A program made the position numbers and the translations under genes. From a virus (taxonomy: Duplodnaviria; Caudoviricetes), in the IMG/VR virus record IMGVR_UViG_3300037183_000031, positions 3,302-67,301 of that record: a DNA stretch of 64,000 nucleotides, one strand, 5' to 3'. Positions 39,911 through 59,652 of the stretch are shown piece after piece (positions within the stretch are counted from its first letter, which is position 1; the number at the start of each line of letters is the position of its first letter). The notes under the pieces are model-generated. The model did no database searches. It was given only the letters and a program-made list of their open reading frames with translations, and was not told the origin of the DNA.

Positions 39911-41365
39911 CTACATCCGCCGCTTCGCGACCACGGCCCCCTGCCCACTGTAGATAACCTTCGGCTCATAGGAATTCCAGCAGCCCGACGTCACGTCAAC
40001 CTGATCGTCGTGGGCATCGTTCACGCCGGTGAAGTCCTCCATCTCCCGCAGGTACTCCTTCAGCCAGGGAGCGGAGATTGGGACGAGTACTCGCCCACCA
40101 TCCGGGTCGTTCCAGGCAGCCGCGACCGGCTGGGCCCGGGTGAACTTGTCGCCCTGCGGATCGGTGTCGCCCTCCACGCCTCCCGGATCGACCAGCTCCA
40201 GCATGTCCGGGATCGCCCGCGCCATGCCCACGGCCTCAACGTTTGCCACCGTGTTACCCCAGCGGGCTTGAAAGGCTCGCAGGTCATCCATGAACGTTGG
40301 GACGGTGACCTGCTTTCGGTAGACCTCGAGAATCCATCCCTTGCGGGTGTGTGGCTCGCGTCCCTCTATCGCCATCGCCATGATCGAGCTGAAGTCGTTG
40401 GATGTTTTCTTGGTCGCCGCCGGGTCGGCGTAGATGACGATTTGCTTCCCGGTGATGCTGAAGGTGGTGTGATCGTAGTAGGTCGGCGAGCCGAAGACCG
40501 TCGCTCCTCGAGGGCGTGGACGTCCCTGGTACATCGCCGCGAACGTATATTCGTTCGTCTTGCGGATGCTCGACAGGTGCCCGGAGTGCGCGCACGTTCG
40601 CGAGGCGCATTGTTCCACTGGGTATTGCTCAGGCCACAGCGCTTCCCCCGGAGCACGCCCGAGGGGATCGGCCGGGAAGCCGTGGGCAGGATCTTCGACC
40701 TCAGCGATGGCGGTGAGGTTCAGGACCTCCCAGCCGCCCTGTTCGATCAGCCGACCGATCAGATCGTCCTTGTGCCACCTCGTCATGACCACCAGGACCG
40801 AGGCGCCTTCCAGCCGGGTCATGGCCACGTCCGTGAACCAGCCCCACACCGATTCCCGTTGGATCTCTGAGTCGGCTTCCTCGCGGTTCTTGATCGGATC
40901 GTCGATGACCAGGAGGCCCGAGACGCCCTGCCCGGTGAGACCGCCGCCAACGCCGCCGGCGAGCAATCCACCGCCGTCCGTGGTGCGCCACTCCGCCTTG
41001 CTGGTGCTGTCCGTCCGAAGCTCCACGCCCGCGCGCAAGGCCAGCTCCCGCGTCGGGCCCGACTTGGACAGCGCCTGGGTGTCCGAATAGCTCATGTAGG
41101 CGTGGGTATCGGCTGGCGATTGGGTGAGCCACCAGGCCAGGCCGTGCTGGATCGTGGTGGTCTTCGCGTGCCGCGGCGGGAACGAAATCACGGCGCGGAC
41201 CACCTCGCGCCTCGCCCGCTCGATCAGGTCGATCAACGGCTTGAGGTGCGGCGGCGGCGGATGGTGCGGCGACATGCGCCGAATGAAGTTCGAAAGGGAC
41301 TCGCCGCCGGAGTCGACCTCTTCGAGCTCCAGAAGCTCGACTTCCTCCTCGGCGGTCAGCGCCAT
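39911..41365 (-). CDS. terL: Terminase large subunit
   Basis: PPRHAKT (Walker A), LVIDDPIKN (Walker B), MTRWHKDD, YADPA and HDDQVD; start ATG 41365. Confidence 0.93.
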   Translation of the reverse strand: MALTAEEEVELLELEEVDSGGESLSNFIRRMSPHHPPPPHLKPLIDLIERARREVVRAVISFPPRHAKTTTIQHGLAWWLTQSPADTHAYMSYSDTQALSKSGPTRELALRAGVELRTDSTSKAEWRTTDGGGLLAGGVGGGLTGQGVSGLLVIDDPIKNREEADSEIQRESVWGWFTDVAMTRLEGASVLVVMTRWHKDDLIGRLIEQGGWEVLNLTAIAEVEDPAHGFPADPLGRAPGEALWPEQYPVEQCASRTCAHSGHLSSIRKTNEYTFAAMYQGRPRPRGATVFGSPTYYDHTTFSITGKQIVIYADPAATKKTSNDFSSIMAMAIEGREPHTRKGWILEVYRKQVTVPTFMDDLRAFQARWGNTVANVEAVGMARAIPDMLELVDPGGVEGDTDPQGDKFTRAQPVAAAWNDPDGGRVLVPISAPWLKEYLREMEDFTGVNDAHDDQVDVTSGCWNSYEPKVIYSGQGAVVAKRRM

Positions 41366-41372
41366 GGAGCCT

Positions 41373-41648
41373 TCAATTGCGGGGCGGCGTGTTCGAGATC
41401 GAAGCCGTCCGACACCAGCGCTTGGCGGCCTCGACGATCCGCATGACCAGCGCGCCATCGTCACGACCGGATGCGTATGTCAGTTCGTACATTCTGCCGT
41501 CATCCCCCTTGGCGCGAATTCCAAACACCAGGGACTGCCTTGGGCGGCTTGGCTCAACCCACACCACCGAGACGTCGCTCATGTCGCCGGTCTTTTCCAG
41601 ATACTGTTTCAACAGATCGAGAGCCTCCCTAACGCTCACCTCTTTCAC
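41373..41648 (-). CDS. Hypothetical protein
   Basis: GTG 41648 overlaps the upstream stop; MKEVSVREALDLLKQYL. Confidence 0.55.
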   Translation of the reverse strand: MKEVSVREALDLLKQYLEKTGDMSDVSVVWVEPSRPRQSLVFGIRAKGDDGRMYELTYASGRDDGALVMRIVEAAKRWCRTASISNTPPRN

Positions 41649-49104: not shown

Positions 49105-49303
49105 TGGGATTCTCCTTGGGTGATTTCGTTGATTGAACATGACTCAATTCACAGTGAATCAGAAGGTACGCTCTAGCGTGACAGCCCAGGGACTCACGAA
49201 GGGATCCGACTACGTTGATTCATTCGACTCCCTTCGGCGGGTTCGTCGGGTCCTTTCGTCTCTTTCGTTTTCTGTCTCGTTTGTCGTCTCGTCTACATTT
49301 CTA

Positions 49304-49331
49304 ATAGTAGTCGAGTGGCGCAGGTCGTCAA
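49304..49331 (-). promoter_or_regulatory. Sigma-70-type promoter for the small-gene region
   Basis: TTGACG (49331-49326), 16 nt, TACTAT (49309-49304) in an AT-rich gap. Confidence 0.55.
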
Positions 49332-49369
49332 TGTATTTCATGACGGGGCGTCGCCACGCGTGCAAACTG

Positions 49370-49804
49370 CTACCGACCGAAGGTGGCTCGTCGGACTGAC
49401 GTTGTCACAGGCTGCGCGAACGTGCGCGCGCGTGACAGTGAGGCTATGAACGTGTCGAGATTGGGGCACGAGATCCCCGCGCCAAGACCCGGTTGCGTGT
49501 AGACCAGGGGTGCCGCCGTCATGGAAGCGATCGCCCGGCGTAGCTCCGTCGGATTGGTCAGCGAAAACCACCCCGCTACCCCGACCGGGCCGATCTCTCC
49601 GTCGATCAGGCGGCAGAAGAATTCGAGCCCTGCTCCCTTGGGCTGGCTGTCGATGTCCACGCACCAGCGCAATGTCGGCACGCAATCCATGACCGCCATC
49701 ATGATCCCACAGCCACTGGAGATCAGGACGCCAGTCGCTTCACTTCGCTGATAGTCGATGATCCGAATCTGGGCGATTGCCGCGGCCTGGGCGACCCCGA
49801 TCAC
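49370..49804 (-). CDS. Hypothetical protein coupled to the ABC-GNAT gene
   Basis: GTG 49804 overlaps the TGA of the ABC-GNAT gene; 144 aa. Confidence 0.5.
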   Translation of the reverse strand: MIGVAQAAAIAQIRIIDYQRSEATGVLISSGCGIMMAVMDCVPTLRWCVDIDSQPKGAGLEFFCRLIDGEIGPVGVAGWFSLTNPTELRRAIASMTAAPLVYTQPGLGAGISCPNLDTFIASLSRARTFAQPVTTSVRRATFGR

Positions 49805-50937
49805 ACCGTTACCGTGTCCGCCAGAATCGCTTCGGCGAGATCCTCTGGCATCTTGGGACCGATGTATTCGAATGATGCCGTTCGACGTCGGTTGCTTCTG
49901 GTGCTTCGGAAGTTTTCGGCCAGCGCCCCGCCTGAAGCTGTGGTGAAACCGGGCTTGCGGGACATGCGCCATTTTCCGGTGCGCATCCTGTTCACGATTT
50001 CCGCAGGGTGCCCGGTGCAGCTGTACGCGTGATACCCGAGACCAGACCAGAGCGAGGCGACGAATTCAAACAGGGTGTTGCCGATTCCAACGCCCTGGTA
50101 ATCCGGCAGGCACACCGTTCGATGCCCGCGGCGCCCCATGCGCCCGTCCGACGTCCGTCCCACGAACGGCAGCCAGGCGTCGAAGGCGACCGGCTGACCC
50201 TCAACCCACGCCACGAAGCAGGTCGCACCAGCGTGGATGGACGCGGTCAAATAGTGATGACGTTTGAAGAACCGCCACGCTGAAGTATTCGCGCGGGTGA
50301 TCGTAATCGTGACGCCTGGTCTTCGTTGGGGCGCCCTCCATGAGAAGGTGCCGACGTGCGGCTCAAGAACCCAATCGGGTTGGAGCCAGTCGATCACATC
50401 CTCGTGGCATGTCACCGCCACCAGTTGCTTGCCCTTCGTCGCTCTGACCGTGCGCGCGGCGGCATGGGATCCGATCCGGGCCACCACCCGATCCACCACG
50501 GACGAAAACTCGTCCACCGCCACCAGCGGTCGCGGGTCCAAGATCGCCCGCGCGAGGTTCACCCGGAAGCGCTCGCCGTTCGACAGAACCGAGAACGGTT
50601 TCAGCCACGCCGGCGGCGAGCTGAACCCGACGTTGGAAAGCGTCTTCGTGATCTCCTTGATCGAGATGTCCCCGAATCCATCCACGATGGCGGCGCCGGG
50701 CTTCCAGGGATAGCCGTCGACCAGATTCTTGCCGAACAGCGCCCGCGCGCAGCTGGATTTTCCAGCCCCCGACGGACCTACGATCAGACCGACCGACCAG
50801 GGCTTTTCTTCCAGCGGCACGTCGAAGTGAAACGACACGCCGTCGCGTGCTTTCTCCTGGACATCAAACATGCCTTCGATCTGCTGAACACGCGGGGTCC
50901 GCTTGATATCGACCTCGAGATCCAGATCCACGCGCAT
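49801..50937 (-). CDS. Soluble ABC-family ATPase fused to a GNAT acetyltransferase
   Basis: GPSGAGKS, LSNGE, VDEFSSVVD and TCHED (ABC); WRFFKRHHYL and RTVCLPDYQGVGIG (GNAT). No TM segments. Confidence 0.85.
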   Translation of the reverse strand: MRVDLDLEVDIKRTPRVQQIEGMFDVQEKARDGVSFHFDVPLEEKPWSVGLIVGPSGAGKSSCARALFGKNLVDGYPWKPGAAIVDGFGDISIKEITKTLSNVGFSSPPAWLKPFSVLSNGERFRVNLARAILDPRPLVAVDEFSSVVDRVVARIGSHAAARTVRATKGKQLVAVTCHEDVIDWLQPDWVLEPHVGTFSWRAPQRRPGVTITITRANTSAWRFFKRHHYLTASIHAGATCFVAWVEGQPVAFDAWLPFVGRTSDGRMGRRGHRTVCLPDYQGVGIGNTLFEFVASLWSGLGYHAYSCTGHPAEIVNRMRTGKWRMSRKPGFTTASGGALAENFRSTRSNRRRTASFEYIGPKMPEDLAEAILADTVTV

Positions 50938-51546
50938 CTACATCAACGCCCGGGCCTTGAGGCCCTCCTTGGCGAACCGGTTCAAAAGCTGCCGCTGCTG
51001 CTTCTCGCTCGCGCATTCGATGATGATGGCCGGGCTGCCCTCGCCGAGATTGAGCACCCCCTCCAGCTCGGCATCGGCGTTGCTCACGATCATCTTGTCG
51101 ATCTCGTTCTGGCTGAACCCGATCCCGCCCGCGGCGATATCGTTCTCCTTCATGAATTCGGCGAGTAGATCCGCGTCCCACCCGCCCCTTTCCGAAATCT
51201 TGTTATCGGCCAGGAGATAGGCCGCTGCCTCCTTGTCGCTCTTGAACGCCACGCCGCGGATCACCGGCACCCACCAGTCACCATCGCGGGCGATGATGCG
51301 GTCCGGAGGTGGCTCGCCGCCGGCCTGCTTGACCTCCAGCATCTCCAGCCGCCCGTGCCCGGCCACCAGCTTGCCCGAGCGGGCGTCCTCGAGCATCGGC
51401 ATCACGTAGCCGAATCGGTCATAGAACGCGTTGATCTCCGGCAGGTCGTGGTCCTTGGCGTTCTTCGGCCAGCGCTTCAGCTCGGCCAGTGCCACGTATT
51501 CGAGACGAATCTCCTGCGGCGCTTCCGGCTTCGGCGTCTTGGCCAT
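50938..51546 (-). CDS. ParB/Srx N-terminal domain protein
   Basis: LKRWPKNAKDH...LVAGHGRL...AYLLADNK...GWD; start ATG 51546. Confidence 0.85.
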   Translation of the reverse strand: MAKTPKPEAPQEIRLEYVALAELKRWPKNAKDHDLPEINAFYDRFGYVMPMLEDARSGKLVAGHGRLEMLEVKQAGGEPPPDRIIARDGDWWVPVIRGVAFKSDKEAAAYLLADNKISERGGWDADLLAEFMKENDIAAGGIGFSQNEIDKMIVSNADAELEGVLNLGEGSPAIIIECASEKQQRQLLNRFAKEGLKARALM

Positions 51547-51575: not shown

Positions 51576-52118
51576 TCAGGCGACTGGCTGGGAATACTGC
51601 CTGACCAAGTCCAGAAACCGCTGCACCGGGAAGGCGGGCCCCGGGTCCGTGTGGTCCGACTTGTGCCAGGCGTCGGTTGCGGCCGCGTGAGTCGTGATAC
51701 CACGTGTCCCGGCGAGCAAGCCGGCCGAGTCCACGAACGCCGCGGGTATGTTCCACCGATTGCAGAGCGCCGCCGTCAGGTTTGCGGCTCGCGAAATCAC
51801 GGACCGGCTGTAGTCGTCATCCCAGTCATCGGACGTGAATGAGGCGCTGGCCACGAGCTCGATGCCGATGCCCATGGCGTTGGCGCCCGGCGCATGAAAC
51901 GCGATGTCGGTCTCCCGCACTGACTGTGTGACCTCGGCATTGTCCACGGCGAAATGCCAGGAAGCGATGCGCTCCGACTTCGCGCACGCGCGCATCAGGG
52001 ACGCGGCAGCGCCAGTGACCTGGGCAATCTCAGCCGAGTGAATCACGATCCAGTCGATCGCGGTTCTATTCGCCGGGCGACAATGCGCGGCCTGCAGAAA
52101 TTGGATGCCATTGTCCAT
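51576..52118 (-). CDS. N-acetylmuramoyl-L-alanine amidase (Amidase_2), likely endolysin
   Basis: WIVIHS, SWHFAVD, AFHA, IGIE and HTDPG; start ATG 52118. Confidence 0.88.
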   Translation of the reverse strand: MDNGIQFLQAAHCRPANRTAIDWIVIHSAEIAQVTGAAASLMRACAKSERIASWHFAVDNAEVTQSVRETDIAFHAPGANAMGIGIELVASASFTSDDWDDDYSRSVISRAANLTAALCNRWNIPAAFVDSAGLLAGTRGITTHAAATDAWHKSDHTDPGPAFPVQRFLDLVRQYSQPVA

Positions 52119-52123
52119 CGTGG

Positions 52124-52207
52124 TCAAGACCTCGGTCTGGTGGCGTCCGCGACCAGGATCACGATCGCGGCGCACAGCATGAAGCACGAGAAGGCGATGG
52201 GATCCAT
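52124..52207 (-). CDS. 27 aa hydrophobic peptide
   Basis: MDPIAFSCFMLCAAIVILVADATRPRS; AAGGAG RBS; TGATG overlap. Confidence 0.5.
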   Translation of the reverse strand: MDPIAFSCFMLCAAIVILVADATRPRS

Positions 52208-52356
52208 CAAAACGGCTCCTTCTCAAGGCACCGACGTGTCTCATCGCAACCCTTCTCATCGACACATGGCTGGGCGTATACCGAGCACGTCTTGACCTGG
52301 ACTGGCGGCTCCTCGGCCTCAGTGGCGGCGCGCTGGTAGCGAGTCCAGTATGACAT
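52207..52356 (-). CDS. 49 aa Cys-containing protein
   Basis: MSYWTRYQRAATEAEEPPVQVKTCSVYAQPCVDEKGCDETRRCLEKEPF. Confidence 0.4.
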   Translation of the reverse strand: MSYWTRYQRAATEAEEPPVQVKTCSVYAQPCVDEKGCDETRRCLEKEPF

Positions 52357-52383
52357 TGGCATGCGATCATCTCGCCAGCACAT

Positions 52384-52695
52384 TTAGGGCTCACAATCCG
52401 GTACGTCGTCCATCGGCCCGCAGGATTTGTTCTGGGCGTTCATCGACACCTGGCATTCTGGATTGGCACCACAGGTGGTCCAAGCACACCCTGACCACGT
52501 CATGCCCTGGTTATCGTAACAAGTGGACTCGGGGTCCACGGCGCGTCCGTCAGTCGGACATGGTGGCAACCCGCGCGACTGAGCGAAGCGAATCGCAGCA
52601 GCGCGAATTGATTCGGCAGTCTTGGGCGGGCGCTGGATCGCGCAGGAGAGAAGCGCAGCCGCGACGATGACGACCGTCGATACGAGCCATTTCAT
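52384..52695 (-). CDS. Cys-rich predicted lipoprotein
   Basis: MKWLVSTVVIVAAALLSC lipobox; six further Cys. Confidence 0.65.
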   Translation of the reverse strand: MKWLVSTVVIVAAALLSCAIQRPPKTAESIRAAAIRFAQSRGLPPCPTDGRAVDPESTCYDNQGMTWSGCAWTTCGANPECQVSMNAQNKSCGPMDDVPDCEP

Positions 52696-58817: not shown

Positions 58818-59101
58818 TGTGTACCTCCGGGCGTCTTGGCCATCAGGTTGTCCCCGTCTTTCACTTGCTGGATCGCCAGGCTCAGCAGTTGCCCATGGTC
58901 TACCTCCGGGTCCGAGGCGATCACAATGTGCCCCGCAGAATCGATCACGATCAACAGAAACTGCACCGGGTTCCCGTGACGATGCTGAACCACTGAATCA
59001 GCCATGTGGGCGGCTGCATTCAGCAGCCCTTCCACGTCCGCCACGGTTGTCACCCTGGCCGCCGTATGTTTTTGGGCGTCAGGTTCAACATGGTGATCCA
59101 C
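58814..59101 (-). CDS. Hypothetical protein
   Basis: 95 aa; GGAGGGG RBS. Confidence 0.55.
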   Translation of the reverse strand: MDHHVEPDAQKHTAARVTTVADVEGLLNAAAHMADSVVQHRHGNPVQFLLIVIDSAGHIVIASDPEVDHGQLLSLAIQQVKDGDNLMAKTPGGTH

Positions 59102-59652
59102 CCCTCCTGTTCATCGTATGGGCCCCATCGAAACCAGGCGTATTCGGTCGCGTCGGTGTCCCCACTCTCCATGAAGCTTGGGCGATTTGGGAGGACGAAC
59201 AAATCAGGCTCCTTGTCGGCGAAGAACTCCCAGCGCTCCTCAGAGGCCATAAAATTGACCCGCAGTAGAAGCACGATCTCGGCCGCTGGGCACAACTCCC
59301 GGAACTTGCGTTGGGTCTCCTCTGCGATCTCGAAATCTGGATTGCCAAGCACGGTCGTCACGTCTGTCAACGGCATCGACCACTTCAGATAGTCCGCGAT
59401 CGATACGATGTCAGCGCCGGCCGCGTACAGTTGATCCTTGAACCTCGCCTGGCGTTCGACCGCGTGCCACACCGGAGAGACGTGGTGTCTCGCTGCCTGG
59501 ATGATCGCTCCGGTGCCAGCCCCCGGCTCAAGCCACACCCCGCCCGGATTAAGCGGCTTCCACTTCTCGAACAGGCGATCGACGGTCCAGGCAGGCGTGC
59601 TCACGTGCCCAAACTTGCCGACCACCTTCTCTCCACGACCCTTTGCTGACAT
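59050..59652 (-). CDS. Phage adenine DNA methyltransferase-like protein
   Basis: STPAWTV, WLEPGAGTG (SAM binding), GNPDF (motif IV variant), RPSF and TEYAWF. Confidence 0.75.
   Translation of the reverse strand: MSAKGRGEKVVGKFGHVSTPAWTVDRLFEKWKPLNPGGVWLEPGAGTGAIIQAARHHVSPVWHAVERQARFKDQLYAAGADIVSIADYLKWSMPLTDVTTVLGNPDFEIAEETQRKFRELCPAAEIVLLLRVNFMASEERWEFFADKEPDLFVLPNRPSFMESGDTDATEYAWFRWGPYDEQEGWITMLNLTPKNIRRPG

Follow-up and report, generated by a model that had tools for sequence, protein, structure and literature searches.

A ParB-linked ABC-ATPase/GNAT module in a complete phage genome as a candidate system for the acylation of DNA bases

Results

A three-gene module

In this study we analysed a stretch of 64,000 nucleotides (the window) of the virus record IMGVR_UViG_3300037183_000031 and focused on three adjacent genes on its minus strand. 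They encode a ParB-like protein, a fusion of an ABC ATPase with a GNAT acetyltransferase domain and a small protein in third position, here called ORF3 (Table 1). Together they are discussed as a candidate system for the acylation of phage DNA. The virus record is complete, comprises 67.3 kb with a G+C content of 63% and holds nearly all of its genes on the minus strand. The first-pass annotation, made from the letters of the sequence, had described the three genes as tightly linked, and this was borne out. The ParB-like gene extends from an ATG at 51546 to a TAG at 50938-50940, a stop that is joined without a gap to the start codon of the fusion (TAGATG). The GTG start of ORF3 at 49804 overlaps the TGA of the fusion (GTGA), and the open reading frame (ORF) ends at 49370. 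The three genes are translationally coupled, and the G+C content at the third codon position ranges from 0.76 to 0.88 in all three called frames.

Table 1. Position and description of the features of the module, of its conserved motifs (residue numbers of the fusion protein) and of neighbouring genes in the window.
Feature	Position	Strand	Description
Amidase_2 endolysin	51576-52394	-	Closes a lysis-like block, upstream of the ParB-like gene in the direction of transcription
ParB-like gene, 202 amino acids	50938-51546	-	phrog_620, phrog_498, partner profile
Mini-domain of the ParB-like partner, about 30 amino acids, predicted beta-alpha-beta (AIIIECASEKQQRQLLNRFAKEGLKARALM)	50941-51030	-	Conserved at partner ends
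ABC-ATPase/GNAT fusion, 378 amino acids	49801-50937	-	ABC residues about 1-200, GNAT about 205-378; phrog_11143, PF00005, PF13508
Walker A, GPSGAGKS, residues 54-61	50755-50778	-	G54, S56, G57, G59 and K60 invariant
ABC signature, LSNGE, residues 118-122	50572-50586	-	L118, S119 and G121 invariant
Walker B, LVAVDEF (138-144), and D-loop, SSVVDR (145-150)	50488-50526	-	D142, E143, F144, S146, D149 and R150 invariant
H-loop, TCH, residues 176-178	50404-50412	-	C177 and H178 invariant
N-terminal end of GNAT, WRFFKRHHYL, residues 221-230	50248-50277	-	F224 and Y229 invariant; W221, H227 and H228 nearly invariant
GNAT beta4-alpha3 segment, HRTVCLPDYQGVGIG, residues 272-286	50080-50124	-	Coenzyme A pyrophosphate loop Q-G-x-G-x-G; R273, V275, P278, Q281, G282 and G284 invariant
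ORF3, 144 amino acids, third position	49370-49804	-	Real gene; small family without a named match
DUF932/TIGR03299 protein, 366 amino acids	48040-49140	-	Neighbour, outside the core; PF06067 8.9e-53, TIGR03299 4.8e-71
ASCH-like protein, 159 amino acids	46430-46909	-	Recurrent non-obligate neighbour, outside the core; phrog_3193 8e-32, Pfam ASCH only E 0.016
Large terminase, then portal	39911-41464 (terminase)		About 5 kb beyond the ASCH-like gene in the direction of transcription

Conserved motifs and predicted folds of the fusion

The fusion was matched end to end by phrog_11143, a family of 'unknown function' (5.1e-95, residues 6-363 of 378), and Pfam detected ABC_tran (PF00005, 9.5e-8) as well as Acetyltransf_7 (PF13508, 7.5e-5), the latter below its curated cut-off. 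Motif conservation was scored in a family alignment of 42 sequences, in which the motifs named here are invariant or nearly invariant columns. The fusion contains the full set of the family, namely Walker A, LSxGE, DEF, SxxDR and CH as well as HHY, R-x-V-x-LPDxQGxG and HP. Intact Walker A, signature, Walker B/D-loop and H-loop motifs and an acetyl-coenzyme A (acetyl-CoA) loop had already been read from the sequence, and all of them are present. The loop, QGVGIG, is of the canonical CoA type and aligns with the same loop in solved GNATs. The invariant Q-G-x-G loop suggests a CoA thioester as the donor.

The family currently carries the names ABC transporter or partition protein in databases. 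We considered the fusion as an ATP-binding subunit of an ABC transporter. It has the intact nucleotide-binding motifs of such a subunit, but no permease was seen alongside. This agrees with the first-pass annotation, which had found no membrane partner. The flanks hold the ParB-like gene, ORF3, the DUF932 gene and the amidase, and no cognate permease was seen among the Pfam-annotated neighbours, for which no transmembrane prediction was made. In 78 related loci the upstream neighbours were likewise ParB-like genes, with terminase or small unknown genes downstream. PADLOC returned generic ABC matches only (mad3, mad8) and no assignment to a defence system.

The AlphaFold model of the C-terminal 179 residues shows a canonical GNAT (mean predicted local distance difference test, pLDDT, 90.5). 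By VIA-align the best Z-scores were obtained for RimI (14.1) and for Ard1, Naa10 and Naa50 (about 13.5). The Foldseek list comprised hundreds of GNATs in a flat ranking and was headed by TmcA (2zpa, E 6.8e-7), and NAT10/Kre33 appeared in the lists as well. We checked whether the domain groups with tRNA or with protein acetylases and found a flat ranking, headed by TmcA in one search and by the RimI and Naa enzymes in the other. Since the ranking is flat, the first place of TmcA carries little weight.

The best Z-scores belong to protein N-alpha-acetyltransferases, and the module could accordingly acylate a host or phage protein, such as a nucleoid protein, RNA polymerase, a defence protein or the ParB-like partner, for host takeover or anti-defence, with ParB merely localising the enzyme on DNA. 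Phage GNATs that modify host proteins are known, for example Rac of phiKMV, which is cited in PMC7824862, and in one Porphyromonas phage record the small ORF upstream of the enzyme is labelled 'acr candidate'. Nevertheless, we consider a protein target distinctly unlikely. A protein acetyltransferase would have no obvious use for an ABC ATPase, and a DNA target accords better with the late or packaging operons in which the module lies and with its taking the place of mom, as described below. Moreover, neighbours that modify the donor (formyltransferase, PanD, CoA-transferase) would be unusual for protein acetylation.

The ParB-like partner and its C-terminal mini-domain

The N-terminal part of the 202-residue partner is a ParB_N-like domain containing a GHGR motif (51349-51363), and the protein further has a helical region (LADNK...GGWDAD), an acidic linker and the C-terminal mini-domain. 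The protein of the window had no Pfam match of its own, and Pfam ParB_N was found in 34 of 76 upstream partners. It matches phrog_620 (2.2e-24) and phrog_498, the N-terminal part of a DNA methyltransferase (1.3e-21), as well as MTase_II of PADLOC (7e-10). A profile of the upstream partners from the 76 other loci recognised it at 2e-38, mini-domain included. A partition ParB was considered and rejected: the ParB_N-type region was the only one detected, with no helix-turn-helix (HTH), dimerisation or ParB C-terminal Pfam domain and no adjacent ParA gene.

A neighbourhood survey, suggested along with the first-pass annotation, covered 80 viral and 80 genomic loci, 79 of the latter being testable for the upstream partner. 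In 77 of the 80 viral and 71 of the 79 genomic loci the gene immediately preceding the enzyme was ParB-like. Among the remaining three viral loci, two have no upstream sequence and the third carries a ParB-like gene further upstream. The two proteins also occur as single-chain ParB-ABC-GNAT fusions of 558-623 amino acids, represented by at least ten cluster representatives. In the Nonomuraea loci (L191-L193, L199) there was no match to the ParB profile within 900 nucleotides upstream.

The mini-domain at the end of the partner can also stand alone. In the Mu-like phages phiE255 and Komp_PAO1_1 (a Pseudomonas phage) and in a Porphyromonas phage, the ORF directly upstream of the enzyme encodes 42-54 amino acids and is a homologue of this tail (26.6, 24.9 and 12.1 bits, respectively). 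We had also considered these small ORFs as Com-type zinc fingers, which was rejected in view of their homology to the tail. A model of the natural fusion P0127 places the tail as a strand-helix-strand unit (pLDDT about 90) immediately ahead of the ABC domain. This model was built on fusions and enzymes, and an alignment to which separate ParB rows had been added was discarded because these rows were misaligned. On account of the stand-alone tail ORFs and the placement in P0127, the tail is read as an adaptor that couples the partner to the enzyme and likely docks on the ABC-GNAT protein. At L064 (641-1318) the upstream ORF matches the tail only, and its N-terminal region differs.

Occurrence and placement in other genomes

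Of 8,000 scored candidates, over 6,900 matched the family at E <= 0.001, and the best 120 share its length and architecture. At E <= 1e-30 there were 631 cluster representatives (50% identity). At least 580 viral contigs encode a relative, as do at least 597 species genomes. A homologue was found in 84 sequenced phages, including phages of Gordonia, Arthrobacter, Streptococcus, Lactococcus, Oenococcus, Burkholderia, Pseudomonas, Porphyromonas, Vibrio and Aeromonas. Cultured carriers include Gordonia phage Jace, Arthrobacter phage EastWest, Burkholderia phiE255 and Lactococcus P335. The family as a whole is found in phages of Actinomycetota, Firmicutes, Proteobacteria, Bacteroidota and Planctomycetota. 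The nearest cellular copies lie overwhelmingly in assemblies of Planctomycetota (L133-L212: Planctomycetaceae, Gemmataceae, Gimesia, Tepidisphaeraceae), and for this reason the host of the phage is likely a planctomycete, judged from sequence relationship.

Some relatives carry inteins or large insertions in the ATPase, at Walker A or in the signature region (P0209, P0141, P0179, P0245). In P0209 a Hint domain and a LAGLIDADG homing endonuclease follow immediately past Walker A, and P0141 and P0179 have insertions of about 340-430 amino acids near the signature motif. Streptococcus phage 315.4 (L003) and further phages of Streptococcus, Oenococcus and Lactococcus have the ABC and GNAT halves annotated as separate ORFs, and the enzyme is matched there in two parts.

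Two kinds of placement recur. In phiE255, Komp_PAO1_1 and the Porphyromonas phage, the tail ORF, the enzyme and a PurN-like formyltransferase follow the tail-fibre genes or lie at the end of the genome, which is the slot of com and mom in Mu. Mom was not found in these three phages, nor in the virus record of the window, while the Mu control was positive (2.8e-77). The second kind was seen at about 41 of 78 viral loci, where a large terminase is at most three genes downstream. Either placement would fit a module that acts on DNA late, ahead of packaging.

In about half of the viral loci terminase genes follow the module directly, and this would also suit a role that involves no modification at all, such as a packaging or partition accessory in which ParB and the ATPase load the terminase. 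Likewise, the order of a DNA-binding protein upstream and a GNAT downstream resembles that of toxin-antitoxin systems, and GNAT toxins (AtaT) are among the fold matches, which would fit a pair with a GNAT-type toxin that serves as a toxin-antitoxin or exclusion system. Several loci, however, carry separate small terminase genes, and the module is far from the terminase in Mu-like phages. The catalytic GNAT and CoA-loop residues are invariant in a family of thousands of sequences, as read from the 42-sequence alignment, and the single-chain fusions speak against a toxin-antitoxin pair. We therefore regard a non-modifying role as very improbable.

The GNAT half had further been linked to the Mom family through an N-terminal FKRHHYL resembling the HY motif of Mom. 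This link found no statistical support. The Pfam family Mom (PF25680) did not match the fusion at E <= 0.1, and hhalign yielded non-significant values of 0.57 against Mu Mom alone and 0.22 against a profile of 46 Mom sequences. In both of these hhalign runs the HHY of the family was placed on H58/Y59 of Mom, residues that matter for its activity (PMC13219725). The Mom structure 8bv8 was absent from the 50 best matches listed by Foldseek and VIA-align, but the list of GNATs is flat and this absence says little about kinship. A specific kinship with Mom is therefore not supported: as the scores are non-significant and the fusion keeps a CoA loop, unlike Mom, the resemblance is an analogy of position and genomic slot and not a demonstrated relationship.

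Variable third genes and neighbours of the module

The gene in third position varies between loci and comprises a formyltransferase, PanD with a CoA-transferase, an ASCH-like gene, a small terminase, unknown genes or, in the window, ORF3. The formyltransferase of the Mu-like set corresponds to the C-terminal half of this enzyme (PF00551). In Gordonia phage Jace (L001, gp87-gp88) and in L056, L081 and L183, a conserved pair of PanD, a genuine aspartate decarboxylase (PF02261, 2e-33), and a short CoA-transferase III-like fragment stands directly after the ABC-GNAT gene. This pair suggests a CoA donor derived from beta-alanine in the Jace-type sub-lineage.

The 144-residue product of ORF3 was also predicted by the gene caller of the source. 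Its family has nine database proteins including that of the window, and the other eight are 36-51% identical to it. Homologues lie directly downstream of ABC-GNAT in L012, L013, L017 and L030 and are also present in L018, L135 and L198. The conserved motifs are IDY..R, SGCGIMMAVMD, RWCVD.D and AGWFS. No match to ORF3 was found in Pfam, PHROG, NCBIfam or PADLOC. Its profile yielded only a non-significant JAB/MPN match among PDB sequences (E 0.19), and the ESM Atlas gave nothing usable. We also considered ORF3 as a degenerate formyltransferase, PanD or CoA-transferase and discarded this, as neither BLASTP nor hhalign revealed a relation. ORF3 is a rare accessory and the only local peculiarity of an otherwise typical locus.

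ASCH-like homologues were present within the flanks of 16 of the 80 viral and 10 of the 80 genomic loci, which are raw counts. They are often encoded on the opposite strand, convergent with the ABC-GNAT gene and abutting its end (L009, L023, L030, L071, L080, L086, L191, L197, L199). The ASCH-like gene of the window lies on the same strand as the fusion, 2.9 kb downstream.

Several small ORFs separate the ASCH-like gene from the DUF932 gene, and a DUF932-type gene was near the module in just 3 of the 80 viral loci. Between ORF3 and the DUF932 gene there is a non-coding gap of 230 nucleotides (49141-49369). Its minus strand contains a stretch rich in purines and a single sigma-70-like site (49331-49304), and the DUF932 gene may be transcribed from here as a unit of its own. 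Outside the locus, an ORF of 200 amino acids (59050-59652, minus) matches the C-terminal part of the DNA methyltransferase family phrog_799 (1.2e-23). The phage may therefore have a second DNA-modifying function.

Discussion

The genes analysed in our study are best explained, and we hold this with moderate confidence, as a phage DNA-modification module in which a ParB-like protein guides the ATP-dependent acylation of phage DNA bases from acyl-CoA. The first-pass annotation had proposed an ATP-driven acyl-transfer machine acting on phage DNA or on a host target. Architecture and conservation support such a machine, and comparative evidence favours DNA as its target, which we infer from three lines. 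Firstly, the ParB-like partner is nearly always adjacent to the enzyme and sometimes fused to it. Secondly, the closest relatives of this partner are N-terminal modules of phage DNA methyltransferases. Thirdly, in Mu-like phages without Mom the module stands where Mu has its mom gene. In addition, we counted in favour of DNA acylation the putative acyl-donor enzymes PanD and CoA-transferase III beside the module in Jace, L056, L081 and L183. Earlier work has described ParB-fold fusions with DNA methyltransferases as typical of phages (PMC12704722), and ParB-like proteins that activate phage thymidine dioxygenases on DNA (PMC13229309).

If the module does act on DNA, its parts could cooperate as follows. 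The ParB/Srx-fold protein would find DNA or load on it, possibly under the control of a nucleoside triphosphate, and its beta-alpha-beta mini-domain would dock onto the ABC-GNAT protein. Upon ATP binding, two ABC domains would close head to tail, with Walker A against the LSNGE signature, and hydrolysis may drive engagement, scanning or exposure of the base. Before the replicated phage DNA is packaged, the GNAT, with its canonical CoA-binding loop, would transfer an acyl group from acyl-CoA to an exocyclic amine of one of its bases, and the mark would presumably shield the phage genome from host nucleases. The variable third gene may tune the donor or the adduct, by means of a PurN-like formyltransferase or PanD with a CoA-transferase elsewhere and of ORF3 in the window.

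Several observations weigh against DNA acylation. The structural neighbours of the GNAT are protein N-terminal acetyltransferases (Z 13-14) and the tRNA acetyltransferase TmcA, and no specific relation to Mom was found by Pfam or hhalign. The ABC half resembles an ordinary nucleotide-binding domain of the transporter or ABC-F type and not one of the SMC, Rad50 or UvrA type. Acyl groups on adenine N6 are described as unstable (PMC13219725), and for cultured phages that bear the module our literature search retrieved no description of unusual bases. Furthermore, ASCH proteins are amidohydrolases of N4-acetylcytidine (ac4C), acting on RNA or on the nucleoside (PMC6972931; bioRxiv 10.64898/2026.02.27.708502), so that an RNA target fits the recurrent ASCH-like neighbour equally well.

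This last point bears on the possibility that the module acylates RNA on the model of TmcA/NAT10, at N4 of cytidine or at another base in tRNA or rRNA, and thereby protects or reprograms translation during infection, with the ASCH-like protein reading or erasing the corresponding mark. TmcA heads the Foldseek matches of the GNAT domain and follows the same logic of an ATPase joined to a GNAT. Moreover, when compared by sequence with proteins of solved structure, the ABC part matched EttA best (7.4e-9), an ABC-F protein that binds the ribosome, and ASCH proteins have been reported to remove ac4C from tRNA (bioRxiv 10.64898/2026.02.27.708502). On the other hand, the ParB-type partner, whose relatives are fused to DNA methyltransferases, the occupation of the mom slot and the proximity of the module to packaging genes speak against an RNA target. 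Pfam also found no RecD-type helicase domain and no tRNA-binding domain in the fusion. Taken together, we consider an RNA target unlikely.

Returning to DNA as the favoured target, a bolder proposal concerns the chemistry of the mark. The module might write base marks of a chemically undescribed class, namely N-acyl groups taken from CoA thioesters. The tail would then serve as a universal adaptor and the third gene as an exchangeable part that determines whether an acetyl, a beta-alanyl or a formylated group is added, with ORF3 as a further tailoring or donor enzyme and the ASCH-like protein as reader or eraser. We put this forward tentatively and regard it as rather doubtful in its full extent. 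If DNA acylation holds true, it would constitute a new chemical class of phage DNA hypermodification, with consequences for restriction evasion, sequencing artefacts and enzyme tools. Our literature search found no experimental study of the module, which with thousands of proteins is among the most widespread phage gene pairs without a bench test.

Comparison with known systems

The Mom protein of Mu transfers glycine from Gly-tRNA(Gly) to adenine N6, which gives N6-carbamoylmethyl-adenine (PMC13219725). Like Mom, the enzyme described here has a GNAT fold, is a late phage gene, occupies the same slot in Mom-less Mu-like phages and carries an H-Y pair that corresponds in position to that of Mom, close to the N terminus of the domain. 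In Mom the residues H58, Y59, R111, S124, D149 and R151 lie in or near the active site, and an HTH-like insertion is essential (PMC13219725). The two enzymes differ in the loop, which is QGxGxG of the CoA type in the fusion and PRNSES with the essential S124 in Mom (PMC13219725). Furthermore, Mom acts alone, whereas the ABC-GNAT enzyme has an ABC ATPase and a ParB-like partner, and the small upstream ORF of the Mu-like phages with the module is a ParB-tail domain and not a Com zinc finger.

TmcA and NAT10 (Kre33) are RNA cytidine N4-acetyltransferases and share with the fusion a P-loop ATPase placed upstream of a GNAT that uses acetyl-CoA, an arrangement that makes base acylation ATP-dependent in these enzymes and would do so here. 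Their ATPase is, however, of the RecD-like helicase type instead of an ABC domain. In Pfam they comprise DUF1726, GNAT_acetyltr_2 and a tRNA-binding domain, whereas the fusion is matched only by ABC_tran and generic GNAT models. A further difference is the obligate partner, which is a ParB-type protein in our case. Phage ParB_N-DNA methyltransferase fusions and ParB-dependent thymidine dioxygenases (PMC12704722, PMC13229309) likewise have a ParB/Srx module fused to or beside a DNA-modifying enzyme. In contrast to these systems, the enzyme here is a putative acyltransferase with its own ATPase, and the ParB-like protein ends in a dedicated mini-domain able to stand alone.

The closest counterpart is the ABC-ATPase-coupled GNAT system for 'acyl DNA-base modification', an in-silico prediction of Iyer, Zhang, Burroughs and Aravind from 2013 (NAR 41:7635) that was restated in Viruses in 2021 (PMC7824862, section 3.4.7). 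As far as that section describes it, the predicted system has the same single-chain ABC-GNAT architecture, is phage-borne and has the same predicted role. Compared with this description nothing essential differs in the window, in which the third gene, ORF3, is a rare accessory. The window therefore represents a typical member of the predicted system. The locus adds no new principle to it. It shows the system cleanly and in full, has an unusual third gene and comes from a phage genome that is itself complete.

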